Positions 5,712 to 62,579 of a DNA stretch of 64,000 nucleotides are shown in pieces. A program made the translations under genes and the position numbers. This stretch comes from Minisyncoccota bacterium (GTDB taxonomy: Bacteria; Patescibacteriota; Minisyncoccia; Phycocordibacterales; JACRKE01), in contig JBAZWG010000001.1 of the NCBI GenBank assembly GCA_041660505.1, positions 179,979 through 243,978 on the forward strand. Direction: 5' to 3'. The stretch's first letter is position 1; the number at the start of each line of letters is the position of its first letter. The notes under the pieces are model-generated. The model did not search any database. It had not been told where the DNA came from and saw nothing but the letters and a program-made list of their open reading frames with translations.

Positions 5712-5713
5712 AA

Positions 5714-14500: not shown

Positions 14501-14573
14501 TTGCGAATTACCAGACTATCACATTTACCGGCTAGAAAAAAGGTGGAAATAATGCTAGATTTATCAAGTATTT

Positions 14574-14662
14574 GGAGCCGTGGTGGAGTGGTCTAACATA
14601 CCTCTTTGCTAAAGAGGCGGCCGGGTAAAACTGGCCCGCGAGTTCGAATCTCGCCGGCTCCG
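14574..14662 (+). tRNA. tRNA-Ser (anticodon GCU)
   Basis: GGAGCCG-UG-GUGGAGUGGUCUAACAU-A-CCUCU-UUGCUAA-AGAGG-CGGCCGGGUAAAACUGGCCCG-CGAGUUCGAAUCUCG-CCGGCUCC-G. Type II with a long variable arm. Confidence 0.9.
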
Positions 14663-14698
14663 TTTGTAAAATTTTATTAATCTTTATATAATACGTTC

Positions 14699-15187: not shown

Positions 15188-15593
15188 AACACTTCTTAAC
15201 CCTCCCGGGTTCCCGGGTGCTACCAGCGCTTTCTCTCACGGCGTCAAGATAGACTTGAACGACGCGGAGATAATATTCGTCACCGGTCAGGTGGCGATAG
15301 ACGAGCAAGGCAATGTGCTCTTTGCCGACAGTATCGCGAAGCAAACAGAATTTGTTTTCGAGAATATAAAGAAAATTCTGGCCGAAGGCGGAGCCTTGCT
15401 TGATGATATAGTGAAAGTGACTATTTACTTAACCCATCTGCACGCCGCAACATTCGCCGAGGTTGCCGCCGTGCGTAATAGATATCTCGCTAATGCAAAA
15501 GCCGCGAGCACTCTTGTAGGAGTGGCAAAGCTGGCCAAAGACGCCTGCCACGTCGAGATTGACGCAATAGCGGTGAAGAAAAAGATTATCTAG
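15180..15593 (+). CDS. RidA/YjgF/TdcF family reactive-intermediate deaminase
   Basis: 137 aa with family motifs IIFVTGQVAID and VKVTIYLT...AAVRNRY. It overlaps the upstream GAF gene by 8 nt. Confidence 0.8.
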   Translation: MPKTLLNPPGFPGATSAFSHGVKIDLNDAEIIFVTGQVAIDEQGNVLFADSIAKQTEFVFENIKKILAEGGALLDDIVKVTIYLTHLHAATFAEVAAVRNRYLANAKAASTLVGVAKLAKDACHVEIDAIAVKKKII

Positions 15594-22722: not shown

Positions 22723-22813
22723 CTATCGCACGGCACGTGCGAAACTTGCTTTATCCTACAGATTTCCGTCAATAACGCAAACAGCGGAGGTTCAACCTCC
22801 GCTGTTCTGTTGT

Positions 22814-22857
22814 CACCGAGGAGAGACCTCCGCTTTTCCGGAGGACTCACCTCGCCG
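22814..22857. repeat. ~45-nt GC-rich palindromic element (CCGAGGAGAGACCTCCG-loop-CGGAGGACTCACCTCGG family), copy 1
   Basis: Imperfect hairpin immediately 3' of groEL. Related copies are at 47953-48000, 48014-48062 and 62533-62579. Confidence 0.7.
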
Positions 22858-22907
22858 TCTTTAATTTTATTATTCCTAACTCCTATCTCCCATCTCCTAA
22901 CTCCTCT

Positions 22908-26219: not shown

Positions 26220-26312
26220 ATTACAAAGCAGAATTGGAGAATTTAGGAATTTGAGAATTAGGGAATATTCTTAAATTCTAAAATTCTTTAATTCATAAAT
26301 TCTGTCAGAATT

Positions 26313-28121: not shown

Positions 28122-28192
28122 AGAATTTCAGAATTTAGGAATTTAATTCATTCTTACATTCTCATATTCTTTAATTCATAAATTCCGTTAAC

Positions 28193-30133
28193 ATGGAACC
28201 ACAGCAACCAAAAAAATTCGTGCCCCAAGCGGCACGCGCGTTCGTTTCTGATGCACCTGCCCGCCATACCTTCGGCAAGTCGATGGCAGGCGGGCCAGCG
28301 CCACGGCGCGCGCCGATGCGTAAACAAACGTCCGTACGTCCGCGCCGAGAGCGTGGTCCGCAACACCGCTCACAACCGGCAAGCAGTCGACCGCACCATG
28401 AACGACATGACCAGGGTGAAGAAGAAAAGAAAAAGAAGGTGATCATTCCGCCGCTCGCGACGGACAGTATCCGCATCATTCCCTTGGGAGGCGTAGAGGG
28501 TGTCGGCATGAACATGACCGTCGTCGAATTTAATGGCGACATCTTCATTGTGGACGCTGGCTTCATGTTCCCAGGCGAGGACTCCCCCGGCGTCGACTAC
28601 ATCATCCCCGATGTCACCTATCTCGAAGAACGCAAGGATAAGATTCGTGGCATCTTCATCACCCACGGCCACTTGGACCACATCGGCAGTCTCCCTTACA
28701 TCATGCAAAAGTTGGGCAACCCGCCGGTCTACACGCGCCTCTTCGGCGCTATGATGATTAAGAAGCGCCAGGCCGAATTCCCCCAGATCCCGATGCCGGA
28801 CCTGCGCATCGTCGAGACCAACAGTCGCGTCAAGGCCGGCAATACTTACGTAAGGTTCTCTAACGTCACCCATACGATTCCGGATTCGATGTGCATAATT
28901 ATAGAGAGTCCTTGGGGCAATCTGCTCTTCATGGGCGATCTCAAGGTAGACCACATCGACCAAGTACCGCTGCCATCGGAGGTCAAGCTCTACACCGAGC
29001 TCGGCAAAGAGAATAATCTCTTCATGGCCGGCGACTCGACCAATACCCACAAGCCCGGCTGGTCCGACTCCGAGACGACAGTGCGCGAGAACTTGCGCGA
29101 GATCGTCCGTACCGCCAAGGGCCGCCTCATCATGGGTACCTTCGCGTCACTAGTCGACCGCGTTATTTACGTCATCACCGAGGCGGAGAAGATGGGCAAG
29201 AAGGTGATTATCGATGGCCGCGGCATGCGTGAATCAATTGAGATCGCTACCGAGCTTGGCCGAGTCAAGATGCAACCGGGCACAATAATCCCCGTAGAGG
29301 AAGTCGACAACTATCCGCCCGATCGCATCCTCATCATGGCGACCGGCGCGCAGGCGGATGAATATTCATCTCTCCAACGCATGTCGATCAAGACGCACAA
29401 ATATCTCAAGCTCCACAAAGGCGACACCATCGTGCTGTCGTCATCCGTAATTCCTGGCAACGAGAAGGGTGTGGAAATCTTGAAGGACAACCTCTCCCGC
29501 CAAGGTGCCAAGATAATCCATTATCGTCTCAAAGACGTGCACTCTTCCGGCCACGCCTACGGCGACGAGGCGACGTGGTTATACAAAATGGTCAAACCCA
29601 AATTCTTTATGCCGGTGCACGGTGGCCACTACATGCTCCGCATGCACGAGGAGGTGGCCATCGGCGCGGGCATCAAGCCCGAGAACATCGCCGTGCCGGA
29701 CAACGGTTCGATTGTCGAAATAACGGGTGGTGGTAAGAAGATTCATATATTAAAAGAAAAAGCACCGATAGACATGGTCATGGTGGACGCCATGGGCGAT
29801 GGCGCCGGCGTGCACGAGCTGGTCATCCGTGACCGCAAGGTCTTGGCCGAGGACGGCATGTTCGTCATCATCGCAACAATCGACGTCAAGACCGGCAAGC
29901 TCCGCCAATCCCCCGACATCATCTCGCGCGGCTTCGTCTATCTTAAAGAATCGCGCGAATTGTTAAAAGAAGTCCGCGGCCTCATTAAGAAGACAATAGA
30001 AAGTGTGACGGTAGATATGCACCCAATAAATATAGACTACGTGAAAAATCTGGTCAGAGAAAAAACCGGCCGCTTCCTCCTCCAAAAAACCCGCAAGCGC
30101 CCGATAATCCTGCCGGTCTTAATCGAGGTGTAA
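28193..30133 (+). CDS. rnj: ribonuclease J
   Basis: Metallo-beta-lactamase motif HGHLDHIG plus beta-CASP and RMMBL regions. There is an approximately 90-aa Arg/His-rich low-complexity N-terminal extension. Confidence 0.9.
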   Translation: MEPQQPKKFVPQAARAFVSDAPARHTFGKSMAGGPAPRRAPMRKQTSVRPRRERGPQHRSQPASSRPHHERHDQGEEEKKKKVIIPPLATDSIRIIPLGGVEGVGMNMTVVEFNGDIFIVDAGFMFPGEDSPGVDYIIPDVTYLEERKDKIRGIFITHGHLDHIGSLPYIMQKLGNPPVYTRLFGAMMIKKRQAEFPQIPMPDLRIVETNSRVKAGNTYVRFSNVTHTIPDSMCIIIESPWGNLLFMGDLKVDHIDQVPLPSEVKLYTELGKENNLFMAGDSTNTHKPGWSDSETTVRENLREIVRTAKGRLIMGTFASLVDRVIYVITEAEKMGKKVIIDGRGMRESIEIATELGRVKMQPGTIIPVEEVDNYPPDRILIMATGAQADEYSSLQRMSIKTHKYLKLHKGDTIVLSSSVIPGNEKGVEILKDNLSRQGAKIIHYRLKDVHSSGHAYGDEATWLYKMVKPKFFMPVHGGHYMLRMHEEVAIGAGIKPENIAVPDNGSIVEITGGGKKIHILKEKAPIDMVMVDAMGDGAGVHELVIRDRKVLAEDGMFVIIATIDVKTGKLRQSPDIISRGFVYLKESRELLKEVRGLIKKTIESVTVDMHPINIDYVKNLVREKTGRFLLQKTRKRPIILPVLIEV

Positions 30134-30196: not shown

Positions 30197-31159
30197 CTAA
30201 AGCATTTCCTGTAACTTCTGTGTATTTCCGTGCTTTAGCAACCCGAGATAGGATTGCAGGGTAGCTGGATTGTGTAGCTTTTTCTGCAAGTTTCTAAACA
30301 TCCGTTTCTTCGTCGTCGTGCGCAGTACCCGGTGATCGGGAAAATGCACCCATCCCAGGAAGTCGACGCCAGAAGCAAGTGTAGCGATAGAAACCTTGTT
30401 CGGATGCAATGAAAGCTTGAGCATTATATTCAGAAAATCAGAAATTTGGGGAATGAGTTGTTCGAGTAATGTTTTGTCATCAGAAAGAAAGACAAAATCA
30501 TCTGCATAACGAATGTAATGCTTTACTTTTAGTTTGTGTTTCACATACTGATCGAACTCGTCCATGTAAATATTCACTAAAAGTTGCGAGGTCAGATTAC
30601 CGAGCGGCAGACCGGTTTGAAAACTTGAAATTACTTTCTCAAGCAACCACTGGACGTTCTCGTCAGAAATATATTCTGCAAGAATGCTAAAAATAATCTG
30701 GTGGTTGATGTTCGCAAAGAACTTGCGTATGTCGCATTTGAGTACCCAGCAGGTACGGGTATTATTCTTGGACATCCGATGTCCAAATTCTTCAAATCGC
30801 TTGAGTGCCTTGTGAGTTCCCTTTCGTAACCGACAAGAGTATGAGTCAGATATAAAAGTCCCGTCGAAGAAGGGATAGAGTTTGCGGTAGAGCGCGTGAT
30901 GTAATAACCTGTCGCGCACCGACGCCTTATGAATATCGCGAGGCTTGGGGTCATTAATTTTGAAGTGCTCATAGTGGCCGTGCATATAGGTAAAACTTTT
31001 CAATTCTCGATGAAGAGTCAAGATATTGTGCAGTAAATGTAACTGAAAAACTTGCACGTCGGCTTTCGTCTTTTTATCTCGAACAAAGTTTTGCCACGCA
31101 AATAACAAATTCTTTACGGAAATGATCTCTTCATAGCTAGTTGTAAACTTTTTTCTCAT
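30197..31159 (-). CDS. DGR reverse transcriptase
   Basis: RT motifs in order: RPRDIHKASVRDRLLHHAL, CDIRKFFANINH, GLPLGNLTSQLLVNIYM (the DGR-type [LI]GxxxSQ signature replacing QGxxxSP) and YIRYADDFVFL. 320 aa, with no maturase or endonuclease domains. Confidence 0.85.
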   Translation of the reverse strand: MRKKFTTSYEEIISVKNLLFAWQNFVRDKKTKADVQVFQLHLLHNILTLHRELKSFTYMHGHYEHFKINDPKPRDIHKASVRDRLLHHALYRKLYPFFDGTFISDSYSCRLRKGTHKALKRFEEFGHRMSKNNTRTCWVLKCDIRKFFANINHQIIFSILAEYISDENVQWLLEKVISSFQTGLPLGNLTSQLLVNIYMDEFDQYVKHKLKVKHYIRYADDFVFLSDDKTLLEQLIPQISDFLNIMLKLSLHPNKVSIATLASGVDFLGWVHFPDHRVLRTTTKKRMFRNLQKKLHNPATLQSYLGLLKHGNTQKLQEML

Positions 31160-31202
31160 ATGGTAGCTTTTTTAATTATGCAAAATCAAAACCTTAAAAG
31201 TA

Positions 31203-31213
31203 CCCCCCCCCCC
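31203..31213. repeat. homopolymeric C11 tract (G11 on the RT strand)
   Basis: taCCCCCCCCCCCgcaac, 44-54 nt upstream of the RT ATG, in the divergent RT/avd intergenic region. Confidence 0.9.
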
Positions 31214-31281
31214 GCAACACCCTGCCGCTTATTACGAAAGTAAAAGCAGTCTATATTTTGTGGCTTCCGGTTCATAAGAAT

Positions 31282-31584
31282 ATGCCAAGGCTCGAACGAT
31301 TTGGCCTTGGCGCGACCATCGAGAAAACTTTTCTTGATCTGCTCAATACGCTTCGCAAAGCTGCCTACGCAGACACGACTCATAAGTTACCGTTGCTTGA
31401 AGAAGCGATTGACGCGGTAGACTGCTTACGTTTCTTTTTACAGCTCGCATGGGAAACCAAGACTATCTCGCACAAACATCTTGCAATCATCGGCGAAGGC
31501 ATCGAGGAAGTTGGGCGCATGATCGGCGGATGGCGAAAAGGCCTGCTTACGAAAACCTCCACAACGCGTGCGGAGGAAAGATAA
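31282..31584 (+). CDS. avd: DGR accessory variability determinant (Avd)-like four-helix-bundle protein
   Basis: ORF 31258..31584 with likely start MPRLERFGLG. Motifs LRFFLQLAW and EEVGRMIGGWRKG resemble bAvd (LRFWLRFLA / AEVGRILGSW) as recalled. The gene is on the opposite strand from the RT and TR. Confidence 0.6.
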   Translation: MPRLERFGLGATIEKTFLDLLNTLRKAAYADTTHKLPLLEEAIDAVDCLRFFLQLAWETKTISHKHLAIIGEGIEEVGRMIGGWRKGLLTKTSTTRAEER

Positions 31585-31588
31585 GGGT

Positions 31589-31693
31589 AGCGGGAGACGA
31601 CCTGATTGCCGTCGTTCCACCTGTTCGGGTTCTCGACCGAGTTCGCGTTGACGTTCCAGCCGTTGCCGGAGTTCCAGTTCGCGTTCACGACCC
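31589..31693 (-). repeat. DGR1 template repeat (TR)
   Basis: 105-nt match to 32058-32162. All 17 mismatches are T on the plus strand here (A on minus). TT doublets correspond to AAC (Asn) codons in minus sense. Confidence 0.8.
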
Positions 31694-32055
31694 AGAGAAA
31701 CAAGCGCCACGCACCGTGCAGACTGCCATCCGTGCCACTGTTCTTTGAGTTCTTTTGGAATACTCGCCGAGCTGTATCGTGTCTGGGACATTCAAAGTCC
31801 GCCAGCAATCTGCACCGATCCTCACTCTTTTTTAGAGCTTGCTGTATCCACACTTGGTGCAGGCGTACCCGCACTAATTCTCGAATACAGGGATGCGAGG
31901 CCCTCTGCACAAGCCGTAGCCGGTGCAATGGAGTGGCCTTAACTTGAGAAGCTAGCATATGTAGATAAAAAACAAAACCCCCCGATACCTGCCGCCAAAG
32001 CGACAAAGTGTCAGAGGGCTTAAGAAGAAAGAATAAGTGACCGAGGTAAACAGGA

Positions 32056-32787
32056 TCAGCGGGAGACGACCTGAAGGCCGACGCTCCACCTGAGCGGGCC
32101 CTCGACCGAGCGCGCGAGGACGTACCAGCCGTTGCCGGAGTCCCAGCCCGCGCTCACGAACCAGAGAACGCCATTTTCGTCCTCGACATACGCGATGTTC
32201 GCGTAGCCGTTGACGAGGAGCGGGCCAGTCTCTCCGCGGGGCTGCTGCAACAGCATACCCCAGAAGTGGGCTAGCTTGATGACCCGGCGAGCTTCATCGA
32301 GCTCGCTCATGATTTCGGGATCGAGTGAGGAACGGAGGAGGGTGTGGCAGCGCAGCTCGGCCTTCTCGACGTCGGTCTCGATCTTGTTCGAGAAGTTCGC
32401 CTTGAAGTTGTCGCCCAGGTAGTAGATCTGGACGGCGGCCTTCGCGGAGGTGTCGAGCTTGAAGTGCTTCTTCACTTCGAACTTGTCGTAGGACGGCACG
32501 ATGGTCGTGCCTTCGACGAGCTTGAGCCGCGGCTGCGCGGGCGGTGCGGATGGCGAGACAACCTCGGGCTTGACGACGAGCGTCTTGCCCGAGTTGATGG
32601 CTGCACACGCGTCCGCCATCTGTTCCCGCACGGACTTCTTGTCCTTGTGCGCGAGCGCCGCCTGTTGCTCAGGCGTAAGCTTGCCGAGGAGTTCGGCGGC
32701 GAGGAGGAGTCGCGCATTTGCGATCTTCCCCGCGAGGTCGTAGGACGCTCCGCGTCCTCGGGTGTCGGGCAATCCCTTTCTGGGCAT
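32056..32787 (-). CDS. DGR1 target protein (C-type-lectin-like C-terminus carrying VR)
   Basis: Start set at MPRKGLPD, with SD GGAAGGAGGTG 5 nt upstream. The C-terminus ...WFVSAGWDSGNGWYVLARSVEGPLRWSVGLQVVSR is encoded by the VR and ends at the stop. No signal peptide. Confidence 0.7.
   Translation of the reverse strand: MPRKGLPDTRGRGASYDLAGKIANARLLLAAELLGKLTPEQQAALAHKDKKSVREQMADACAAINSGKTLVVKPEVVSPSAPPAQPRLKLVEGTTIVPSYDKFEVKKHFKLDTSAKAAVQIYYLGDNFKANFSNKIETDVEKAELRCHTLLRSSLDPEIMSELDEARRVIKLAHFWGMLLQQPRGETGPLLVNGYANIAYVEDENGVLWFVSAGWDSGNGWYVLARSVEGPLRWSVGLQVVSR
32058..32162 (-). repeat. DGR1 variable repeat (VR)
   Basis: Homologous to TR1, with A/G/C at the 17 positions where TR1 has T (plus strand). 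It abuts the target stop codon. Confidence 0.8.
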
Positions 32788-38394: not shown

Positions 38395-38847
38395 ATGTTA
38401 CATGATGATATAAAAGCGAGCATCAAAGACGCGATGCGAGCCAAGGATGAGGTTCGCCTACGGACCTTGCGCGGAATTCTGGCGGCATTTACCAATGAGC
38501 TGGTCGCGACCAAACGCACCCCGCAAGAGATGCTCCCGAACGAGGACGGCATAGCCGTTATCCGCCGGCTGGTCAAACAGCGCAAGGATTCGATAGACCA
38601 ATTCGAAAAAGGCGGCCGTCAAGATCTGGTGGAAGGCGAGAAAGCCGAGATGAGCATACTCGAAAAGTATCTGCCACAGCTGATGCCCAGAGCCGATATT
38701 CAGATCCTGGCCGAAGCCAAGAAAGCCGAGCTTAATATTTCCGACAAATCCAAAGCAGGTATCCTCACCGGCGCCCTGATGAAAGACTTGAAAGGCAAGG
38801 CCGACGGTGCAGATGTGAAGGCGGTCGTCGATTCGCTATTCGCTTAA
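38395..38847 (+). CDS. GatB/YqeY domain protein
   Basis: 150 aa with the GatB_Yqey pattern (DIKASIKDAMRAKD...LRGILAAF...ILEKYLP). Confidence 0.8.
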   Translation: MLHDDIKASIKDAMRAKDEVRLRTLRGILAAFTNELVATKRTPQEMLPNEDGIAVIRRLVKQRKDSIDQFEKGGRQDLVEGEKAEMSILEKYLPQLMPRADIQILAEAKKAELNISDKSKAGILTGALMKDLKGKADGADVKAVVDSLFA

Positions 38848-41444
38848 AGATTCTTCAAGAACTTCTCGACGTCTTTTTGCGCTTTTTTGTGCCACAAGAG
38901 GCGACCTTCTACACTCTCAATTGCTTGGGCGAATGGCCTCTCGGCGCCTTTTTGTTTGTTTTTGTTTTTATTCCAGAATAATTTAGCGGCTTTTACTTGT
39001 TCTTTGGTTTGGAAATGGCCGAAGAAGCCTAATGCCATAAAGTTAAACAAACTGCCGGTGTGCGAGAATCTATCATAAAGCAGTCCCCAATTCTTCTCTG
39101 TCCAGCGCCACAATACTTCACTCGCTTCAGGGTTCGCAATGACGCCCGCTTGCACCGTACGCGAATCTTGCGGGCGCACCATGTCAGACATAGAGAAATC
39201 AAGCGTGCGCAATGCCAACGCGGAGTCGCGGAAGAACCCAAGTGCGATAGCCAATCTCTGCTTCTCTTCTTGCATGCTTTCTTTATGCCATAAGGCGAGC
39301 ATCTGCTCGTACTCTTTCACATTGCCGTGCAAGGCGACGGTCTGATAGACGCCCGCACGCAGGTCGGGATATATTTCTGCGCCCGATGCCACATGCGCGT
39401 CGAAGAGCTTCTCTGCATGCTCGACAGTTGCCGTATGCCCATACCGGCCGAGTTGGCCAAAGGTAAGCGAGCGCAGGAGCGAGGTACTATGGCTGTCGTC
39501 TTTTTTGGGCTGGTAACCCAACGTGTCCATCACTGTAGCGAACAAATTTCTCGCGTAGGCACGCAACTTTTTTTGCAATGGATTGCCGTGCAACATAAGG
39601 TCTACCGCGCCGATGACACCGGCGATTTCCGACCAGACATTATAATTATCTTCATGCTCGTAGGCGGCAAGCAAATCAAGCACTGTATATGTCGATATCC
39701 GGCAGGCCCGAGTAGAGGCGAATGCATCGCTCAAGATACTCAAGCGGTCGATGGGCGAAAGCTCCTTGTTTCGAATAGGTTCATATAGTTTCGCAAGGAG
39801 TTCTTTGCTGTATGCGGTACGAAAGAACCCGGCCTGGCCGGCATTAACAAGTGTCCAGTCGGCTGATGCACCGACTAAGACTTGGGCTTGTTTCTTGGTC
39901 AATAAAGTTTTCTCGAGTTGCTTCTTCCCTGCCTGCTCGATAAGTACCGGAATCTGCCAGACTGCATTCTTCTTTGTTGCTGATTTTGGATTCGAGAAGA
40001 ACCTTTCTTGCGAAAGCACTATTTTATCAGACTTAAGAGAGGCAGAAACAATCGGGTAGCCTGGCTCGCCGATCCAATTCGTCATGAGTTTCGCCACATT
40101 GACACCCGATACTTTAGTGAGCGAATCCCACAAATCTTTCGTCACTGTATTTTTGTACGAATGTTTTTTGAGATAATGTTGCAGACCTTTTTGGAACGTC
40201 TTCGGCCCGAGGAAGGCGTGGAGCATATGAATCACCGAGGCGCCCTTGTGATAGCTCACCGCATCGAAAAGCGAAGAGATCTCCTTAGGATGATGTACCG
40301 GGACTTCAATCGGGTGAGTCGAGGCAAGTGCGTCCAAATGCAAAGCTTCCGCCTTGTCCATGGTGTGGAACTGTTCCCACATATTCCATTCTGGATGAAT
40401 ATGATTCATCGCGAGGAATTCAATCCACGAGGCGAAGCCTTCATTAAGCCAGAGCTGGGTCCACCACTCCATAGTAACAAGGTTGCCGAACCATTGGTGC
40501 GCCAGCTCGTGCGCAATTACGAGCGTAACTCTCTGCTTTGCCGCCGCAGATGAATGATCCGGATCGACGAGCAAGCCGGTCTCGCGATATGTTATAGCGC
40601 CCCAATTCTCCATAGCCCCGACGGGAAAGTCGGGCACAGCGATGAGGTCGAGTACCGGCAACGGGTATTTTATGCCAAAATAATCGGTGTAAAATTCTAA
40701 TATCTTGACTGTTGTGTCGAGCGCATACTCTGACTGATGCTTCTTGCCGGGTGTCGCAAAAATTCTTACACGCACCCCGCCCTTCGTCTTCGCTTCAACG
40801 TAATCAAAGTTACCGACAATAAAGGCGACGAGATAGGTCGACATCCTCGGCGTCGGCGCGAACTTGACGATTTCGTACAGCCCCTCCCCTGCCCCTCCCC
40901 GAAGGAGAGGGGTTTCTATTTCTCGGTCAATCTCGTAGGTATTCGAAATTGCAATCTGCCCCTTCGGCACCATCAAAGTAATATCGAAGATTGCCTTCTG
41001 CGAAGGCTCATCGAAGCATGGGAAGGCACGGCGAGCATCTACAGGCTCGAATTGAGTCGTAGCCAACGTGCGCTTCTCGCCCTCATGTTCGTAGGTACTG
41101 CGATAGAATCCGGCGAGCTTCTCTGTGATTTTACCATTGAAGGCGAGTTCGAGCTCGCACTTCCCTTGTACTGCTTTTGCAAACGTAAAGGTTGCTGTCT
41201 CTTCTGCCGGGTCGTACGACACAATACCTTCTTGTCTGCTCTTTTTTTGAGACAGAAAAACAGAGCTTATCGTCAGATCAGCAGAGTGCAAAGTTATAGC
41301 TTTTGTTGGTTTTGCAAGCGCAAGCTCGATAGTTTCTTCGCCCTTAAACGTCTTATGATTGTGGCTCGGGTGGATCATAAGACGGTAACGGCTTGGGCTT
41401 ACATTTGACGATAAACGTACTGATTTTGCTTTATTTTTTTGCAT
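38844..41444 (-). CDS. pepN: aminopeptidase N (M1 family)
   Basis: GAMEN motif (GAMENWG) and zinc site HELAHQWFGNLVTMEWWTQLWLNEGFA (HExxH-x18-E). Confidence 0.85.
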   Translation of the reverse strand: MQKNKAKSVRLSSNVSPSRYRLMIHPSHNHKTFKGEETIELALAKPTKAITLHSADLTISSVFLSQKKSRQEGIVSYDPAEETATFTFAKAVQGKCELELAFNGKITEKLAGFYRSTYEHEGEKRTLATTQFEPVDARRAFPCFDEPSQKAIFDITLMVPKGQIAISNTYEIDREIETPLLRGGAGEGLYEIVKFAPTPRMSTYLVAFIVGNFDYVEAKTKGGVRVRIFATPGKKHQSEYALDTTVKILEFYTDYFGIKYPLPVLDLIAVPDFPVGAMENWGAITYRETGLLVDPDHSSAAAKQRVTLVIAHELAHQWFGNLVTMEWWTQLWLNEGFASWIEFLAMNHIHPEWNMWEQFHTMDKAEALHLDALASTHPIEVPVHHPKEISSLFDAVSYHKGASVIHMLHAFLGPKTFQKGLQHYLKKHSYKNTVTKDLWDSLTKVSGVNVAKLMTNWIGEPGYPIVSASLKSDKIVLSQERFFSNPKSATKKNAVWQIPVLIEQAGKKQLEKTLLTKKQAQVLVGASADWTLVNAGQAGFFRTAYSKELLAKLYEPIRNKELSPIDRLSILSDAFASTRACRISTYTVLDLLAAYEHEDNYNVWSEIAGVIGAVDLMLHGNPLQKKLRAYARNLFATVMDTLGYQPKKDDSHSTSLLRSLTFGQLGRYGHTATVEHAEKLFDAHVASGAEIYPDLRAGVYQTVALHGNVKEYEQMLALWHKESMQEEKQRLAIALGFFRDSALALRTLDFSMSDMVRPQDSRTVQAGVIANPEASEVLWRWTEKNWGLLYDRFSHTGSLFNFMALGFFGHFQTKEQVKAAKLFWNKNKNKQKGAERPFAQAIESVEGRLLWHKKAQKDVEKFLKNL

Positions 41445-41452
41445 AGAAATTA

Positions 41453-42529
41453 CTATATCACAAGTTTATGTTGCCTCAAAACAGCTTCGACATCTTGAGA
41501 ACTTTCTGTTTGCATAAGCGCAATTTTTAGTTCTTTAGCGTGTATGTGCCCTGCCATGTACGAGCCGAAGTGTTTACGCATAACAGCAAATGGCTTTATG
41601 CCTTTATACAATTTTTCGAAGAGTCCGGCATGCTCAAGCATTACTTTCGCGCGTTCTTCATAAGGCAAATCCTCGCGCGAAACTTTCGGATTAAACAGCC
41701 ACGGATTACCGAATATGCCACGCCCGATCATTACGCCGTCTACGCAATATTTCTCGGCCATTGTTTTGGCCTCGTTCATGTTTCTTACATCACCGTTGCC
41801 GATGCATAAAATTCCGCCAGCTGGCGGATTTACCGCCGCATGAATTAATTTTGCCGCCTTGGCAATTTCATCCCAATGCGCCGGCACTTTCGACATCTCT
41901 TTCTTTGTCCGCCCGTGAATAGTGATTGCTGCCGGTTCTGACTTTATAATTTCACTTATCCATTTTTCTGTAATAATACTGTTATAACCTATGCGGGTCT
42001 TAACCGACACCGGTATCCGCCGGCTGGCGGACATCGCGCCCTCCTTCGCCGCTTCAATAACTTCACGCGCAAGTTCCGGGTTATTTATCAAATCCGCGCC
42101 GGCTTTCTGCTTATTCACAGACTTGTCCGGGCAACCCATATTGATGTCCACACCGTCGAAGCCAAGCTCACTCGCCAATTTTGCACAATAATAAAAGTTC
42201 TCCGGTTTCGAACCGAAAAACTGCGCCACTATCGGCCGCTCGCCTTCGCTGTATCGCAAATCCAAAAGTAATTTTTCTCTTGCCTTTTCATGTACAAGAC
42301 CGTCGCAGGATACTTGCTCGGTCCAAAATACAGTTTCGCCTTGAGGAAAAGGGTGTTTGGAAATGGTCTGGCCGAGGCGCAAGCCGAGGAGATCCGAGGA
42401 CCTTTCCAAAGACCTCTTTTCGAGAGGAAAACTATATTTTGCCACTATTTGCCGAAATGCCGCGTCGGTGACATCAGCCATTGGGGCCAATGCAAAGAAA
42501 GGTTTAGGTAATTTAGTCCAGAAAGACAT
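41453..42529 (-). CDS. dus: tRNA-dihydrouridine synthase
   Basis: N-terminal LAPMADVTDAAFRQI plus TIM-barrel motifs and a catalytic Cys region. The reading frame carries an approximately 34-aa insertion (SFPLEKRSLERSSDLLGLRLGQTISKHPFPQGET) encoded by a repeat element. Confidence 0.85.
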   Translation of the reverse strand: MSFWTKLPKPFFALAPMADVTDAAFRQIVAKYSFPLEKRSLERSSDLLGLRLGQTISKHPFPQGETVFWTEQVSCDGLVHEKAREKLLLDLRYSEGERPIVAQFFGSKPENFYYCAKLASELGFDGVDINMGCPDKSVNKQKAGADLINNPELAREVIEAAKEGAMSASRRIPVSVKTRIGYNSIITEKWISEIIKSEPAAITIHGRTKKEMSKVPAHWDEIAKAAKLIHAAVNPPAGGILCIGNGDVRNMNEAKTMAEKYCVDGVMIGRGIFGNPWLFNPKVSREDLPYEERAKVMLEHAGLFEKLYKGIKPFAVMRKHFGSYMAGHIHAKELKIALMQTESSQDVEAVLRQHKLVI

Positions 42530-42554
42530 AAGTTACCTATTATGCAATATTTTT

Positions 42555-42582
42555 AGCCTTTACGCTAGGTCGGTTGCGGTGA
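42555..42582. repeat. 28-bp direct repeat CCTTTACGCTAGGTCGGTTGCGGTGAGC, copy 1
   Basis: Identical to 44118-44145. Together they flank the SDR + wHTH-Cas2-like segment. Confidence 0.85.
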
Positions 42583-42611
42583 GCCAGTTTAAATTTTGGG
42601 CAGCGTATCTC

Positions 42612-43352
42612 TTACTGATATCCGCCATCTACCACGAGAGTTGCACCCGTGATGAAACTTGCGTCATCTGAGCAGAGGAATAGGGCCGCATTTGCTATCT
42701 CTTCCGGCCGACCCCATCTACCCAAGGCAATCTTCTCTGTTTCGCTTTTAACAAGCTCTTGTGGCAAGTCCTTGTTTATTTCTGTATCAACCCAGCCTGG
42801 AGCTATTGAGTTTACCCTGATTTGAGGGGCTAGAGCTTGAGACATGTTCTTCGTCAGACTAATGACTCCTGCTTTTGAGGTATCGTAGTCTGCCGAATCC
42901 GGACTTAATGAATCAATGCCGTTTGTTGAAGAAATATTAAGGATCGACGCACCAACCCTATTTTTCATATGTGGCACGGCATATTTAGCACAAAGAAAAG
43001 TTCCTATCAAATTGACGCGGAGGACTCGTTCCCATTGTTCAACAGTTTTTGTAAATATGGGAATATCCCAAACGATACCAGCATTATTAACCAAAATATC
43101 AATTGCCCCGAAGTGCTGTGTCGTTTCGCTAATCATTCTTTTCACATCGTCTTCGCTCGCCACGTCCGCCTGGATTGCAATAGCACCTACGCCCAAACCT
43201 CGTATCTCTGCCACCACTTCATCGGCAGCTGATTTGTTTTTTACATAGTTCACCACGATACTGGAACCTTCTTTGGCAAAAACTATAGCTGTTGCCTTGC
43301 CGATTCCTCTGCTTGAACCCGTAATAAGTGCTACTTTGTTTCTTAATTTCAT
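42612..43352 (-). CDS. SDR family oxidoreductase (FabG-like)
   Basis: TGSSRGIGKA Rossmann motif, NNAG and a catalytic YxxxK-type region. Confidence 0.8.
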   Translation of the reverse strand: MKLRNKVALITGSSRGIGKATAIVFAKEGSSIVVNYVKNKSAADEVVAEIRGLGVGAIAIQADVASEDDVKRMISETTQHFGAIDILVNNAGIVWDIPIFTKTVEQWERVLRVNLIGTFLCAKYAVPHMKNRVGASILNISSTNGIDSLSPDSADYDTSKAGVISLTKNMSQALAPQIRVNSIAPGWVDTEINKDLPQELVKSETEKIALGRWGRPEEIANAALFLCSDDASFITGATLVVDGGYQ

Positions 43353-43438
43353 CTAGGATATGTTAATTTCTTCCTTGCAAGTATAGCATCGATGTAAACA
43401 CTGTACCACAAACGAGCCAGAACATATCACTACATTTT

Positions 43439-43463
43439 TAGACGGCCGTCACGATTTGTAGTG
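43439..43463. promoter_or_regulatory. palindromic site TAGACGGCCGTC...TTGTAGTG upstream of the regulator gene
   Basis: GACGGCCGTC is self-complementary. A second copy (TTAGACGGCCGTT...TGTAGTA) lies at 44076-44100 after the gene. An extended -10 TGATATAAT sits 6 nt before the ATG, suggesting a leaderless start. Confidence 0.4.
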
Positions 43464-43493
43464 TTTTTACATCGAGTTTGATATAATTAATCT

Positions 43494-44054
43494 ATGGCGA
43501 TTAAATACACCTACAAGGGTGCTCCGGAAATTATTCTGACACTTCTCGACCAATCAAAAGACTGGGATACTCGAGAATTCCTGACCATGGCAGTCAATGA
43601 GCTACAGCCACTCATTGTTAGAAAAAAATACACCGCAAAACATTATGCCTCCCTTTCGGTAGAACGACTCTGCTCGCAGGGACTCGTCATCAAAACAGTC
43701 CGAGGCAAGAAGGAATTCTACATGATTACCAAAATGGGTGAACGTAAGCTCAGAGACACACAAAGAAAGAAGATAAAAATTACGAAGACAGTATGGGACG
43801 GTAAATGGCGAATGGTAATTTTTGATATCAAGGAGACAAAACGAAAAAAACGAAATCTTTTGCGCAGAGAGCTTAAGGCCCAGGGTTTCGAGAGACTTCA
43901 GCAAAGCGTCTGGATATATCCTTATGAATGTTACGACTACGTTGCACTGCTTAAAACATCGTTCGCGAGCAACGCAGAGATTCTGTATGCAATCGTCGAG
44001 AAGCTTGAGAATGACGAATGGCTACTTAAAAAGTTCGGGCTGAAAGGAAAATAA
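43494..44054 (+). CDS. wHTH (PadR-like) N-domain fused to a Cas2/VapD-like C-domain, hypothetical regulator
   Basis: N-terminal LSVERLCSQGLVIKTVRGKKEFYMITKMGERKL is wing-like. C-terminal KWRMVIFDIKETKRKKRNLLRRELKAQGFERLQQSVWIYP matches the Cas2 N-terminal pattern (xVLVxYDI...RRR..L...L...G.RVQ.SVF). No CRISPR array is nearby. Confidence 0.45.
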   Translation: MAIKYTYKGAPEIILTLLDQSKDWDTREFLTMAVNELQPLIVRKKYTAKHYASLSVERLCSQGLVIKTVRGKKEFYMITKMGERKLRDTQRKKIKITKTVWDGKWRMVIFDIKETKRKKRNLLRRELKAQGFERLQQSVWIYPYECYDYVALLKTSFASNAEILYAIVEKLENDEWLLKKFGLKGK

Positions 44055-44117
44055 AATACTACAAAATTAGACGGCCGTTCAAAAATGTAGTAAATCCGGG
44101 TTTCAAGAATTATGACC

Positions 44118-44145
44118 TTTACGCTAGGTCGGTTGCGGTGAGCTC
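44118..44145. repeat. 28-bp direct repeat, copy 2
   Basis: Encodes the last 8 codons and stop of the Clp-like gene (ELTATDLA*). Confidence 0.85.
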
Positions 44146-46503
44146 TATCTTTGACCCAGCAGGCAGTTCGCCGGCGATTATTTTGCGGGCAATCAGGCCC
44201 TCTACCTTATCTTGAATAGCGCGGTTCATCGGGCGGGCGCCAAACTTGGGGTCGTAGCCTATTAACACAACGCTATCCAATACAGCCTGATTAATAACGA
44301 AATCAATTCCCTTCTCGCGCAGGCGCGCCTGCAATTTCTTGAGGAGCATCTCGGCGATCTTAGTGATATTCTCCTTCGACAATGGTTCGAAGAATATCGT
44401 GCCGTCGAAGCGATTCATGAGTTCCGGCTTGAGCGTCCCGTTCGCGACAAGCGCGTTGGTCAGCTCCTCTTTATGCTCGGCCAAGTTGCCGCCGCTCTCG
44501 ACAATTTTGAAAATATCATCACTCCCGGCGTTTGAGGTGGCGATGAAAATAACATTGCGTGCGTTTACCTTCTCGCCGGAGGCATCGGCGAAGACGCCTT
44601 CATCCAGCACTTGCAGGAACAAGTCTTTTACATTATTCGACGCTTTCTCAAATTCATCCAGTAAAAGTACGCCGTATTTCTTGTCGCGAATCATAGATGA
44701 CATCACGCCCGGCTTGCCGAGGCTGAAGGAGCCGATCAGGCGGTCGATGGCGTCCGATTCTTTGTACTGATTCATGTCGAGACGCATCATACTCGACTCG
44801 TCGCCGAAGTAGGCGCCGGCCAAGGCTTTTGCCGTCTCGGTCTTACCCACGCCGGTCGGCCCCAAGAAGAGGAAGGTGCCGATGGGGCGATTTGGATTCT
44901 TGATACCGCTACGAACACGACGAAGTGCGTCAGCCACTGCCTTAATCGCTTGTTCTTGGCCGATTACGCGCTGATGTAAATATTCCTCGAGATGTTCCAG
45001 CTTGCTTTGTTCATCCATGCCAATCGCGCCGACAGGAATTTTTGTTTTTAATTTCACGAACTGGAGCACATCTTCTTTAGAGACGAAAAAATCATGGTCG
45101 CGTACGAGAGTTGATGATAAGTCCATGAGCAGGTCAACGGCCTTGTCCGGCATAATGCCGTCCGTAATATACTGCTCGGCACATTCCACGATAGACACGA
45201 GTGCCGGATATGTAAAAGTTAGCCCGCTCTTGTCTTCGATGTCGGCACCCATGCGCGCGATTAGTGCAACAACAGCATCGTGATTAGGTTCGTCGATACT
45301 TATCTTCTCGAACTTTGACATGAGCGATTGATTGGATTCAAAAAGCTTATGGAAATTCGCTGCGTCGGAGAGCGCGATAATCTGGATTGCAGAAGACGCA
45401 AGGACGGGAGCAAGCAAGGCTGTAACGTCTGAACCCAAAGCTTGCGCGGAACTATAAAAGGCGGCAAAGTCGTCGAAGATAAGTAGAATATTACCGGCGT
45501 GAATGGCTTCTTTGATTGTTAGCTGGAACTCCGTCTCGAAGACGTCTTTGGCTTTTGAGCCGGAGACAAGAGCGACACCATGGAAGCGAACGGTACGTTT
45601 ATGGGCGAGCTGAGCCGTTGTTTTACCGGTCAAAATCTTGTCGGCCAGACCATTTATAATATCCACGACCCCTGCCCCGGGATGGCCAACCAAGAATACA
45701 TTAGTCTCATCCGCGCGCGAGAGCGCCACCTCGATGCGGCTGATTTCAGCCTCGTGCATATCGCTCTTTACGCGGTCCATTATCCCCTTGCGCGTGCGGG
45801 TAATGTCCTCACTATAGCGATCGAGCCGAAAGGTGTCCCCATAGGCCCAATCTTTGCCGATACTTTTTATACTGCCGAGATTCTCTGCTGTCCACCAGCG
45901 CTCCTTCTGCCGGCGTACATTCTCTTGATCCATTACAAGGGCGACAGTGCCGGTAAACTCTTTCTCGCCTGCTGCAACATTAAATAACACGTCGCGCAAA
46001 GCCACTTCGGCCAAGAACAATTCGCGCGAGAATGTCTTAAATGAACAAAGTGCCTCGTCCGAAGGTGTAAATGGCGAGGCAGAAGCCAAGCGCGGTGCTT
46101 GTGCCAGCGAATTTATCGCCGCCGCCTCCATACCGAGACGGAGCAATACTTCGTAGCCCGCGCGAGATTCGACGTAAGCGCGGAGGTAATCGTTCTCATA
46201 TCTTCCTCGATTTGCGATAATGTAAGCCTCTATCCAGTAGGGCTCATGGTCGGAGTCGTAGGAACGCTCATATGCATCAAGCAAGATTAGGCAAATCCAC
46301 AGAACCAGCAAAAGCGCGAGGACTCCGAGGAGGCGCACAGCGATACTCGGCACAGAGATGAAATAGTGGGCATACGCCAAGAAAAGAATACCGACAATCA
46401 TGAAAATCTTGGTAGCAATAAGAAGAATTTTGCGCGACTTATTGGTCAAGATGCTGTCGAGACCAGCAAGCGATTTGGCGGTCATTAATGTGTATGCATT
46501 CAT
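44119..46503 (-). CDS. Clp/Hsp100-family AAA+ ATPase (two AAA modules) with N-terminal transmembrane segment
   Basis: Walker A motifs GHPGAGVVD... and GPTGVGKTETAKALA are present. An N-terminal region of about 110 aa carries 2-3 TM helices. Confidence 0.65.
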   Translation of the reverse strand: MNAYTLMTAKSLAGLDSILTNKSRKILLIATKIFMIVGILFLAYAHYFISVPSIAVRLLGVLALLLVLWICLILLDAYERSYDSDHEPYWIEAYIIANRGRYENDYLRAYVESRAGYEVLLRLGMEAAAINSLAQAPRLASASPFTPSDEALCSFKTFSRELFLAEVALRDVLFNVAAGEKEFTGTVALVMDQENVRRQKERWWTAENLGSIKSIGKDWAYGDTFRLDRYSEDITRTRKGIMDRVKSDMHEAEISRIEVALSRADETNVFLVGHPGAGVVDIINGLADKILTGKTTAQLAHKRTVRFHGVALVSGSKAKDVFETEFQLTIKEAIHAGNILLIFDDFAAFYSSAQALGSDVTALLAPVLASSAIQIIALSDAANFHKLFESNQSLMSKFEKISIDEPNHDAVVALIARMGADIEDKSGLTFTYPALVSIVECAEQYITDGIMPDKAVDLLMDLSSTLVRDHDFFVSKEDVLQFVKLKTKIPVGAIGMDEQSKLEHLEEYLHQRVIGQEQAIKAVADALRRVRSGIKNPNRPIGTFLFLGPTGVGKTETAKALAGAYFGDESSMMRLDMNQYKESDAIDRLIGSFSLGKPGVMSSMIRDKKYGVLLLDEFEKASNNVKDLFLQVLDEGVFADASGEKVNARNVIFIATSNAGSDDIFKIVESGGNLAEHKEELTNALVANGTLKPELMNRFDGTIFFEPLSKENITKIAEMLLKKLQARLREKGIDFVINQAVLDSVVLIGYDPKFGARPMNRAIQDKVEGLIARKIIAGELPAGSKIELTATDLA

Positions 46504-46512
46504 GATGTGTTC

Positions 46513-46917
46513 TTAGGCTATTGGCCTGAAGATAAACGTGAATCCGGCAAATACCAGAATAATCAAAAATATTGGCAAGAGCATCCAGAGCAATATCATT
46601 CCAACTCCGCCGACTATCACTAAAGCCGTTGCGACCAGACCGATGACGATAGTGACGGTTCTGATGAGCAGGCCGACGACCCGCATAATGCTGTTGAATA
46701 TCACGTGCTCCATGATAGCGCCCGGATTGATGGTGTGTGAGGCACCTTCGTTCATGCGTTTCCAAGGCGAAATGAGAGTGAGCAAAAGATTCGGTATCGA
46801 AAAATAATGAATCACAAAATACAAAATATGCCCCCAGTTTACGAGCAATTCTTTGAGCCCTTTGGTGTAATGCCAAATGAGATAATTGGGGAGAAGCAAG
46901 GCGATAGGCATGACCAT
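46513..46917 (-). CDS. hypothetical membrane protein
   Basis: 134 aa with 3-4 hydrophobic helices, immediately upstream of the Clp-like gene. Confidence 0.4.
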   Translation of the reverse strand: MVMPIALLLPNYLIWHYTKGLKELLVNWGHILYFVIHYFSIPNLLLTLISPWKRMNEGASHTINPGAIMEHVIFNSIMRVVGLLIRTVTIVIGLVATALVIVGGVGMILLWMLLPIFLIILVFAGFTFIFRPIA

Positions 46918-47070
46918 ATTATATCACTGCCGCCACGCAAACGCTGTGTATAAAATTAAGAGACCTCGGCCACAAAAAGGTATCTGAAATAAAACACAGC
47001 CGCTCACGAGGAACGGCTGGTTGAGGAAATTCCTCGAAGAACTAAAAATTGTCTTGGCCAAGTACTCGGA

Positions 47071-47763
47071 CTACGAACGCTTTTCGCGCTTTGCGAGCAC
47101 GTAGGCGTTATCGAAGTAACGCTGCTCGATGAAGTCATGAATGCTGACGCTTTCGAGACTTCTACCGGCGCGATTGGCAAACATAGGGAATCTACTCACC
47201 GTATCATTCATTCCTCGGTCGTTTACCCATGGAATGAACAGGTACCGTTTTTCGCAAAACCAGGGAAAGCTTGCAACGAAAAGGTAGGCCTCGCGCAAGC
47301 TGATGGGAGACAGATCGCTGTCTCCCCGCCCGGTGCGCTCCCTATCCTTCTTATACATCTGGTTGACGAGATCTCGTGGGGTCTCCGCGTGATAGCCTTC
47401 GTCGCCTAGCTCAATCGGCTCAAAGACGATTCTGTTGCCGGCGTTGACACCTTCCGAGACGCACGGCATTTCCCAGTTGAACCTCTCACTGAATCCATCC
47501 TCGATGTAGTTGAGGCGACAGGCGGCGAGCAGTTTCTGGGTGTGTGGTGTAGCCGAACCCACTTCAATCGGCAAACCGGTCTCTGCAAGAAAGCTACAGA
47601 GGTTGATCTTGCTGAGAAGCAAGTATTCGAGTGCTTCCTCGTTGTCGAGCAGTCGCTGTGCGAGCTCTCCGTCCAGTCTCCCATACAAATAGGAAAACCG
47701 AATCTGGAGAAACTCCGTTTGCCCTTGCGACACCGACTTACGCGGTATCCTTGGCTTAACCAT
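47071..47763 (-). CDS. hypothetical protein
   Basis: ORF 47071..47904 trimmed to MVKPRIP. No recognisable domain. Confidence 0.35.
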   Translation of the reverse strand: MVKPRIPRKSVSQGQTEFLQIRFSYLYGRLDGELAQRLLDNEEALEYLLLSKINLCSFLAETGLPIEVGSATPHTQKLLAACRLNYIEDGFSERFNWEMPCVSEGVNAGNRIVFEPIELGDEGYHAETPRDLVNQMYKKDRERTGRGDSDLSPISLREAYLFVASFPWFCEKRYLFIPWVNDRGMNDTVSRFPMFANRAGRSLESVSIHDFIEQRYFDNAYVLAKREKRS

Positions 47764-47952
47764 GACAAAACTCCTTTTCCAGCCAATGGGAATGATTCCC
47801 AAAAGCCCTAATTCCTCCGTGGGTGGAGACGTACTGTTCCATGTTCCCCCAGAGGCGAGTGACCGTATCAAGGTTGTTATAGCATACTGCCAACAAGAGA
47901 ACAACTCGACCCCAGTGGCTCATTTCCCACCATTTGACCCGAGGATGCTTGG

Positions 47953-48000
47953 TCGCCGAGGAGAGACCTCCGCTTTTACCGGAGGACTCACCTCGGCGAC
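47953..48000. repeat. GC-rich palindromic element, copy 2
   Basis: GTCGCCGAGGAGAGACCTCCGCTTTTACCGGAGGACTCACCTCGGCGAC. Confidence 0.7.
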
Positions 48001-48013
48001 AGAATATTAAGAC

Positions 48014-48062
48014 GGCAAGGTCTCTCCTCAAGGAGCGGAGCGGGAAGAGGTGAGTCCTTGCC
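48014..48062. repeat. GC-rich palindromic element, divergent copy 3
   Basis: GGCAAGGTCTCTCCTCAAGGAGCGGAGCGGGAAGAGGTGAGTCCTTGCC. Confidence 0.6.
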
Positions 48063-48066
48063 GCCC

Positions 48067-62484: not shown

Positions 62485-62532
62485 GTAATTAGAAAATCCT
62501 AACATAATATTAGGATTTTCGGAAGCCTTTTT

Positions 62533-62579
62533 GTCGCCGAGGTGAGACCTCCGCCCTTGCTGGAGGACTCACCTCGGCG
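62533..62579. repeat. GC-rich palindromic element, copy 4
   Basis: GTCGCCGAGGTGAGACCTCCGCCCTTGCTGGAGGACTCACCTCGGCG. Confidence 0.7.

Follow-up and report, generated by a model that had tools for sequence, protein, structure and literature searches.

A small genomic islet of 1531 base pairs (bp) lies between a gene for a ClpB-like ATPase (clp) and dus, the gene for tRNA-dihydrouridine synthase, in a genome of Candidatus Paceibacterota (contig JBAZWG010000001.1). The islet was horizontally acquired, carries a short-chain dehydrogenase/reductase (SDR) gene and the gene for a PaaX-like regulator, and is bounded by perfect 28-bp direct repeats, one of which rebuilds the 3' end of clp. It occupies a hotspot of gene turnover and is genuine but ordinary. 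As to its origin, we tentatively favour one Campbell-type (single-crossover) integration across the 28-bp clp end, which is the likeliest of the routes considered. The analysis covers a 64-kb stretch, referred to below as the window, of a 719-kb contig that belongs to a metagenome-assembled genome; the nearest available relatives are approximately 25-30% diverged at the protein level, and mechanistic and regulatory statements are inferences throughout.

A perfect 28-bp repeat pair bounds the insert

The 28-mer CCTTTACGCTAGGTCGGTTGCGGTGAGC is present in two exact copies on the + strand (coordinates of all features are listed in Table 1), with a start-to-start distance of 1559 nucleotides (nt). 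No third copy is found in the window, even when 3 mismatches are allowed. An initial annotation of the window had recognized this pair, which is indeed real and exact, but had placed it slightly wide: its coordinates are corrected here by +2 and -2, and its spacing from 1563 to 1559. Exact 28-mer pairs are expected by chance at a rate of about 3e-8, and none of 100 shuffled sequences reproduced the match. The edges of the repeat are sharp: outside the 28 nt, 7 of 12 bases agree, and on one side only. No tRNA, tmRNA, or Rfam element was identified at the insertion site.

Copy 2 is continuous with clp, and the homology of clp to its relatives extends to the edge of the repeat (alignment A1). Its reverse complement, G CTC ACC GCA ACC GAC CTA GCG TAA AGG, consists of the last base of a Glu codon, the codons for LTATDLA, the stop codon, and 3 nt beyond it. 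Copy 1, as originally annotated, falls in non-coding DNA between the stop codon of the SDR gene and the start of dus. On its left (+ strand) it is joined to ancestral clp-dus intergenic sequence: read as its reverse complement, copy 1 runs into CTAAAAATATTGCATAATAGGTAACTT-ATG(dus), and it is this stretch that comes after the clp stop in the empty-site contigs L004 and L005 described below.

Both junctions were also recovered in an independent Logan assembly of run SRR18595301, in which two contigs match them at 100% identity. Contig L001 corresponds to window positions 43081-47984 and contig L092 to positions 40484-43110; each reads through one repeat and continues for 0.5-1 kb or more to either side of it, and the contigs pass unbranched through both repeats. 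The two contigs end, and overlap by 30 nt (43081-43110), within the SDR gene and away from the repeats.

Related genomes carry the empty site

Relatives were found by a search for Clp homologs, and their contigs were then compared at the junction. The Clp orthologs of L004, L005, L006, and L007 are 74%, 73%, 74%, and 60% identical, respectively, to that of the window; in the genome contig collection searched with Clp, the only match was a 29%-identical Armatimonadota sequence. In L004 and L005, which are related Paceibacterota contigs, clp is followed by 30 nt and then by dus, and there is only one homolog of the 28-mer. The junction of these contigs reads ...GAGCTCAC(C/G)GCA(A/G)CCGACCTAGCCTAAA(G/C)G-G(C)(T/A)AAAATATTGCATAATAGG..ATG(dus), and window positions 42501-42584 are 87% identical to the L005 junction and 85% identical to that of L004.

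Because L004 and L005 have a single clp end followed by dus, the segment in the window was inserted, and its insertion doubled 28 bp of the clp/dus junction. The window differs from the empty site by these 1531 bp and by an extra copy of the 28-bp target. The initial annotation had proposed such an insertion and had pointed to the junction in related genomes as the place to look for an unoccupied site; the two contigs bear this out. The ancestral order is shown to have been the clp 3' end, a 27-nt intergenic region, and dus, and the insert now lies 3 nt past the clp stop. With the 28 bp on either side of the insert, the native C-terminus and stop codon of Clp are unchanged, as is the native sequence upstream of dus.

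A candidate for a decayed second copy in L006 and L007 was rejected: the sequence GCTCGCCAAAGA upstream of dus resembled the clp end by eye, but local alignment against shuffled sequences gave p = 0.2-0.95.

The clp-dus interval is a gene-flux hotspot

The clp-dus interval of six lineages is found in five states. It is empty in L004 and L005, holds the regulator and the SDR in the window, holds the regulator and an open reading frame (ORF) of 99-106 amino acids (aa; ORF99/106) in L006-type genomes, and holds a 133-aa ORF in L007 and a 193-aa ORF in L100 (Clp identity 45%). The small ORFs are related neither to one another nor to the regulator, and none has a family assignment. Homologous small ORFs were at first assumed to be cargo shared by L006 and L007, an assumption dropped when BLASTP gave no alignment. 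With relationships ordered by Clp identity, (L007,(window,(L004,(L005,L006-type)))), the presence and absence of inserts is patchy. The clp-dus junction is thus a hotspot of gene flux between core genes, and with four unrelated fills of a general hotspot, site-specific targeting is not needed to explain the location of the islet.

Composition, source, and age of the insert

The insert has a GC content of 0.423, which places it in the lowest 2% of 1531-nt windows in the 64 kb (mean 0.492). The GC content at third codon positions (GC3) of the SDR gene is 0.40, compared with 0.56-0.61 for clp, the peptidase gene, the PBP gene, and serS. The insert is therefore compositionally foreign. The closest SDR homologs are from genomes of approximately 41% GC. 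This SDR family is highly conserved and widespread in Patescibacteria, with more than 100 clusters at 64-81% identity, and the nearest members (75-81% identical) stand in unrelated contexts without the regulator, such as DUF2200-SDR-HAD hydrolase and H+-PPase-SDR-MscS. Nucleotide homology of the SDR is limited to positions 42607-43356, that is, to the coding sequence. A look-up of the exact SDR protein sequence returned no record.

The regulator module, consisting of the regulator gene and the palindromes P1 and P2 on either side of it, has its own set of relatives. It is 75% identical (blastn) to L006 and L008-L012 at the nucleotide level and 82% identical at the protein level. This similarity ends at the palindromes, and homology to the L006-type genomes starts again only within clp. 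In these genomes, which come from four samples, the module also lies at the clp-dus junction, convergent with clp, and is followed by the unrelated 99-106-aa ORF; no direct repeat is detectable at this junction. The next member of the regulator family is only approximately 48% identical. Since the homologies of the regulator module and of the SDR end separately, the cassette is composite, and the regulator has a history separate from that of the SDR. The two-gene cassette of the initial annotation is thus a single insert of 1531 bp, but not one with a single history.

The L006 clp end differs from the window 28-mer at 9 of 28 positions. If the two copies had diverged since the split from the sampled relatives (the region is 87% identical to L005), the probability of identity at 28 of 28 positions would be about 0.03. 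The duplication is hence younger than these splits. A recombination breakpoint within clp was considered and rejected, as sliding-window identity to L004, L005, L008, and L007 showed no change of affinity.

The regulator is PaaX-like and belongs to a large family

The regulator is named "CRISPR-associated endonuclease Cas2" by NCBI because the cas2 model TIGR01573 is just passed (27.8 bits, cut-off 24.5); it does not pass TIGR02277, the PaaX equivalog model (56.2 bits, cut-off 264.55). An AF2 model (pLDDT 87) has a winged helix-turn-helix (wHTH; helices at residues 10-61, wing at 65-78), a linker helix, and a beta-alpha-beta-beta-alpha-beta domain (residues 105-168). Escherichia coli PaaX (8a39) is the top Protein Data Bank match both by profile and by Foldseek on this model. 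The N-terminal domain is matched by PadR/AspA-type wHTH proteins and the C-terminal, ferredoxin-like domain by Cas2 (5zyf). The motif WDGKWR..FD is invariant across the family, and all 25 sequences compared have D111 at the end of beta-1. Neither a CRISPR array nor cas1 is present in the window. The protein is a short PaaX-like regulator and not a CRISPR adaptation protein, and the wHTH-Cas2-like architecture initially assigned to it stands.

PaaX of E. coli, a phenylacetyl-CoA-responsive repressor that binds palindromic operators, shares with this protein a wHTH and a central Cas2-like domain (PF20803). For the regulator here, repression released by a ligand is plausible. The two proteins differ in several respects: PaaX is approximately 300 aa in length with a C-terminal PaaX domain, whereas the regulator is 186 aa and ends after the Cas2-like domain; the Cas2-like FD(I) motif at beta-1 is kept by the regulator and absent from PaaX; and, unlike paaX, the regulator gene stands between two copies of a locus-specific 30-40-nt palindrome. 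With Cas2, the C-terminal domain has in common the ferredoxin-like fold and the conserved Asp. However, Cas2 is a stand-alone protein of approximately 90-100 aa encoded beside cas1 and a CRISPR array, whereas here the domain is fused to a wHTH, with housekeeping neighbours in 80 loci. No paper linking PaaX and "Cas2-like" was found in the literature collection searched.

The regulator family has more than 580 matches in metagenome contigs, mostly from groundwater, and none on viral contigs. The palindrome pattern was followed in the window and in loci L012-L091; in 50 of 70 non-redundant loci with sufficiently long flanks, the gene is surrounded by an inverted-repeat pair whose score exceeds the 99th percentile of a shuffled null. 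The arms have a median length of 33.5 nt and stand 14 nt ahead of the start codon and 17 nt past the stop codon. The palindromes are locus-specific (their centres include ACGGCCGT, CGCTATAGCG, ACGACCGT, and CGATCG), and in many cases one locus has two identical copies. A very diverse set of genes adjoins the regulator (77 of 127 neighbours are singletons), largely housekeeping genes such as those for SecA, GyrB, PheT, LepA, MiaA, DprA, and an M16 peptidase. Regulators with at least approximately 76% identity usually have one flank or more in common, whereas less similar ones do not retain the context. The possibility that the module is an active transposon was considered and set aside: contexts differ only at lower identity, and mobility is unconvincing. 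Because diverse contexts appear only at low identity and there are no viral members, these data argue for a family that is mostly vertically inherited and has an unusual two-operator architecture.

Origin of the insertion

A single Campbell-type integration would account for the islet as follows. A circular or circularized DNA would have had the 28 bp in common with the clp end, and a crossover inside this shared segment would have left one copy at each end of the insert. Candidates for the catalyst are a site-specific recombinase supplied in trans and host homologous recombination, which would be less efficient on so short a homology. We prefer this origin, at a level of confidence that remains tentative, because it is the classical route to a direct repeat of this length that rebuilds the end of a gene. 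Today the islet can probably no longer move, although deletion between the repeats might restore the empty site. It is not transposon-like, given the 28-bp duplication and the lack of both a transposase and terminal inverted repeats (TIRs): inverted repeats at the insert ends score 7 at best (null 5.9 +/- 1.1; p = 0.22), and only 5 of 20 bases match in register.

A number of observations weigh against the Campbell-type origin. The insert encodes the SDR and the regulator only, so that, as first noted, no integrase has been retained in it, nor was one seen among ten mid-size ORFs of the window. The 28-mer differs from many recombinase core sites in that it has no dyad symmetry: its best arrangement has 6 mirror-complementary pairs, which is equalled by 58% of shuffled sequences, and its single-stranded fold (z = 0.09) shows no structure above chance. 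Given these properties, and with no cognate recombinase found in the collections searched, the att-like mechanism proposed in the initial annotation is no more than a candidate. A search for the exact 28-mer, which the same annotation had suggested, gave no further instance in the metagenome or viral contig collections, and no attP donor was found there. Outer direct repeats are likewise absent around 80 other regulator loci, where spanning repeats are palindrome pairs only; none comparable occur at the other fills of the clp-dus junction, and none flank the SDR homologs examined. The duplication-bearing insertion is accordingly a singleton and cannot be generalized. A length of 28 bp is at the lower limit for RecA-type recombination. 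Finally, the presence of the closest regulator at the same junction in the L006 lineage could reflect inheritance or exchange among relatives and not de novo integration.

The main rival is a different history, in which clp and the regulator module, already adjacent in a close relative as they are in the L006 lineage, were imported together and anchored in an empty recipient by clp homology. Past the SDR, the far end would then have been closed by an illegitimate join at a point 28 bp upstream of the anchor's end, making the duplication accidental. Such an import is a real possibility, if an unlikely one. The two most similar regulators known share both junction and orientation (82% aa and 75% nt identity; the next is at approximately 48%), and the cassette lacks a recombinase, TIRs, and dyad symmetry. 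DprA genes are present in these lineages, and hotspots that lack mobile elements and are turned over via recombination in flanking core genes are well documented (PMC5635113). The clp gene, however, shows no breakpoint or change of affinity, in a comparison with relatives too distant to expose a close donor, and no microhomology is visible at the SDR-side junction. A clean, sharp-edged duplication of 28 bp is instead the product of a single crossover in a shared segment; published illegitimate joins of the type required mostly delete recipient DNA and do not duplicate it.

Target-site duplication (TSD) is improbable. Here, staggered nicks 28 bp apart at the clp end would have been followed by ligation of linear DNA and gap repair, much as in the TSDs of transposons and casposons or the repeat duplication of CRISPR spacer integration. 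The edges of the duplication are sharp, no similarity between insert and target is required, and the cassette does encode a Cas2-fold protein with the conserved beta-1 Asp. Nevertheless, no transposase, Cas1, or casposase is encoded and no TIRs are found, and an outer duplication is seen in 0 of the 80 other regulator loci. The palindromes enclose the regulator gene alone and not the insert. Moreover, the family is missing from viral contigs, and its members with at least approximately 76% identity share their context, with no sign of active transposition. The duplication also far exceeds the usual length of a TSD.

It is very improbable that the arrangement is old and vertically inherited, with the 28-mers kept identical by selection (on the Clp C-terminus and the region upstream of dus) or by gene conversion and with L004 and L005 representing secondary deletions. 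The junction does evolve slowly (85-87% identity to L004 and L005, compared with approximately 68-70% for clp overall), deletion from repeat to repeat would yield exactly the L004/L005 sequence, and the regulator occupies the junction in two lineages. Yet copy 1 is non-coding and the synonymous sites of copy 2 are free to change; the chance of complete identity over this divergence is the low value given above. In addition, the L006 clp end has diverged without any second copy, the GC3 of the SDR gene is far from the host value, and the Clp-identity tree would require two independent, precise deletions.

We give very little credence, slightly less than to a vertical origin, to a more radical alternative, in which the protein is not a plain repressor and the module of P1, gene, and P2 (approximately 670 bp) is self-contained, semi-autonomous, and seeds or marks gene-flux hotspots in the Candidate Phyla Radiation (CPR). 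The Cas2-like domain, by means of its conserved Asp, would then act on DNA at the module's own palindromes, and a long-stagger integration, recalling the repeat duplication of CRISPR spacer acquisition without Cas1, would have left the 28-bp duplication behind. An assembly artefact, in which a chimeric contig was joined via the shared 28-mer, has next to no likelihood even for a metagenome-assembled genome, since contigs from an independent assembler cross each junction at 100% identity and overlap each other only inside the SDR gene, by 30 nt, which is longer than the repeat.

Genes and control region of the islet

Table 1. Features of the clp-dus region in the window.
Feature	Coordinates	Strand	Remarks
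M1 peptidase	38844-41444	-	
dus, tRNA-dihydrouridine synthase	41453-42529	-	Pfam Dus 1.8e-58; other flank of the target site
dus with 27-nt ancestral intergenic region	41453..42556	-	Own promoter-like TGCATAATA
Direct repeat copy 1	42557..42584		Non-coding, between SDR stop (42612) and dus start (42529); exact match
Inserted DNA	42585..44115		1531 bp; missing from empty-site relatives (alignment A1)
SDR-family oxidoreductase	42612-43352	-	246 aa; glucose-1-dehydrogenase/FabG-like cargo gene; Pfam adh_short_C2 E 2.6e-67; NCBIfam NF005559
Divergent SDR/regulator control region	43353..43493		141 bp; palindrome P1 and two extended -10-like promoters
Extended -10-like TGCTATACT	43388-43380	-	For SDR; putative promoter, from sequence
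Regulator module P1-gene-P2	43428..44095	+	668 bp; blastn homology to L006-type lineage
Palindrome P1 (ACTACATTTTTAGACGGCCGTCACGATTTGTAGT)	43429..43462		34 nt; 31 nt before regulator start; probable operator
Extended -10-like TGATATAAT	43479-43487	+	6 nt before regulator ATG; putative promoter, from sequence
PaaX-like regulator	43494-44054	+	186 aa; wHTH and Cas2-fold; PF20803 (PaaX_M Cas2-like domain) 6.9e-20
Palindrome P2 (ACTACAAAATTAGACGGCCGTTCAAAAATGTAGT)	44058..44091		34 nt; 3 nt past regulator stop; second site copy
Direct repeat copy 2	44116..44143		Last seven codons, stop, and 3 nt of ClpB-like gene
ClpB/ClpC-like AAA+ ATPase	44119-46503	-	794 aa; target gene with duplicated 3' end; Pfam AAA_2, ClpB_D2-small

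The gene content of the insert is as initially annotated, both proteins being confirmed by domain matches (Table 1). The palindromic sites reported at both ends of the regulator gene are likewise present, although the downstream one is imperfect. P1 and P2 are interrupted palindromes of the form ACTACA-N6-GACGGCCGTC-N6-TGTAGT: GACGGCCGTC is at 43441-43450, and P2 has GACGGCCGTT as its centre instead, at 44070-44079. The P1 hairpin is weak (-2.3 kcal/mol, z -0.8). Because they fold poorly as hairpins, the palindromes are best read as double-stranded operators for a dimer.

The extended -10-like TGATATAAT is so close to the regulator ATG that a leaderless mRNA is implied. Neither extended -10 was listed by a consensus promoter scan, which needs a -35 element. 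In the regulatory model suggested by this layout, a dimeric PaaX-like wHTH repressor would bind both 34-nt palindromes around its own gene. From P1, in the divergent region, it would control its own leaderless promoter and that of the SDR, and both autorepression and SDR repression would probably be lifted by a small-molecule ligand, as in PaaX. Two points count against this model: control of the SDR is deduced from position only, and SDR-regulator adjacency recurs at one other locus (L014), with a 36%-identical SDR in a different orientation. As no terminator was found between the SDR gene and dus, transcription of the former probably continues into the latter.

Other features of the window

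Two families of GC-rich (double-)hairpin repeats of approximately 100 nt, e.g. GTCGCCGAGGAGAGACCTCCG...CGGAGGACTCACCTCGGCGAC, are located mostly just downstream of genes (window 1904-2002, 22809-22858, 47949-48063, and 62530-62579; L004 approximately 4530-4690). Between the PBP gene and orf134 they are present in the window and in L004 but not in L006. Since their presence differs among relatives, they are mobile MITE-like (miniature inverted-repeat transposable element) or terminator-like elements. Related elements are found within dus. The dus orthologs have variable in-frame inserts of 39-47 aa at one position, after AKYS/GK (window 42330-42430; L005 6440-6560; L006 9235-9375), with none in L004 and L007. 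At the nucleotide level each insert is a copy of a repeated hairpin element that occurs between genes as well: those of the window and L005 match window 1904-2002, and that of L006 matches the 47949-48063 family. They resemble the Rickettsia palindromic elements, which are inserted in frame in protein genes.

A second lineage-specific insertion of approximately 1 kb (window approximately 46965-47945) carries orf230 (47071-47763, - strand), which encodes 230 aa with no family match. It is missing at the orthologous spot in L004-L007 and abuts a hairpin element. A clean long direct repeat around this insertion was sought and not found; its ends carry only partial copies of a hairpin arm.

The window also contains a diversity-generating retroelement (30197-32787) with a reverse transcriptase gene at 30197-31159 (RVT_1 1.4e-24). 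Its template repeat is at 31589-31699, and its variable repeat (32058-32168) is at the 3' end of a 243-aa target ORF; at 17 of 20 core mismatches, an A in the template stands opposite any base in the variable copy. AT-rich arrays with an 8-nt period (AGAATTT / ATTCTTAA) at 26230-26313 and 28114-28196 are inverted around a gene for a family-5 solute-binding protein (26475-28121). A 1675-aa ORF (15590-20617) includes six tandem repeats of 306 nt (102 aa) at 17118-18714, with 61-80% identity. Two divergent tRNA-Ser genes are located 72 nt apart (14413-14500 and 14573-14663), for which ARAGORN predicts an unusual ACT anticodon beside GCT. Lastly, a 30-nt hairpin-like repeat (TTCTAGAAGGCCTCGCCTTCTA...) has four copies in window 3884-5720, spaced by 567-673 nt, apparently after each of several small tandem genes.

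Significance

Mobile elements and integration mechanisms are poorly described in the CPR. The islet is a recent gene gain resolved to the nucleotide in a CPR genome from groundwater, with the filled site, the empty site, and the duplication all documented. The clp-dus interval also indicates that sub-megabase CPR genomes, too, have a hotspot of accessory gene turnover between housekeeping genes. The annotation of one protein is corrected from "CRISPR-associated endonuclease Cas2" to a short PaaX-like regulator. Its family, with co-varying pairs of palindromes, constitutes a ready set of proteins and operators with which to study transcription control in organisms that cannot yet be cultured. 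This by-product may be more useful than the islet itself, which is tidy and well documented but not surprising.

Comparison with known integrative systems

The islet does not resemble transposons, insertion sequences, or MITEs: the insert has no TIRs, no transposase, and no short TSD of fixed length.

Xer-dependent integrative elements and pdif modules are small, integrase-less, and bounded by 28-bp dif-like sites. The islet shares with them the length of the site and the character of a small module without an integrase. Dyad symmetry of the XerC/XerD type is not above chance in the 28-mer, and the target, which is not a dif site, is the coding end of clp and serves as a coding end in relatives too. 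Furthermore, pdif modules are bounded by inverted sites, whereas those of the islet are direct.

A parallel is offered by cis-mobilizable elements (CIMEs), which are decayed integrative elements that have kept attL and attR and lost the integrase (PMC5704250), and by islets at the 3' ends of genes. As in these, direct repeats are found at both ends of the islet and one of them rebuilds the 3' end of the target gene; relatives have a single-copy empty site, there are no integration genes inside, and the cargo is foreign and accessory. The islet differs in its length of only 1.5 kb, and the collections searched yielded neither a related element in intact form nor an integrase or attP. Its target is the end of a protein gene in a CPR bacterium, and the symmetry of a recombinase core is absent. 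The islet thus has the geometry of a CIME without the core symmetry, and is not a proven CIME.

Oliveira et al. (2017, PMC5635113) have described chromosomal hotspots of horizontal gene transfer that lie between core genes and in many cases lack mobile-element genes. The clp-dus junction resembles these closely: across relatives, the same interval holds unrelated accessory genes or none, with no recognisable mobile-element genes. One allele of the clp-dus hotspot carries a perfect 28-bp duplication of its target, the record of an integration event, whereas the normal turnover of such hotspots, through homologous recombination in their flanks, leaves no duplication.

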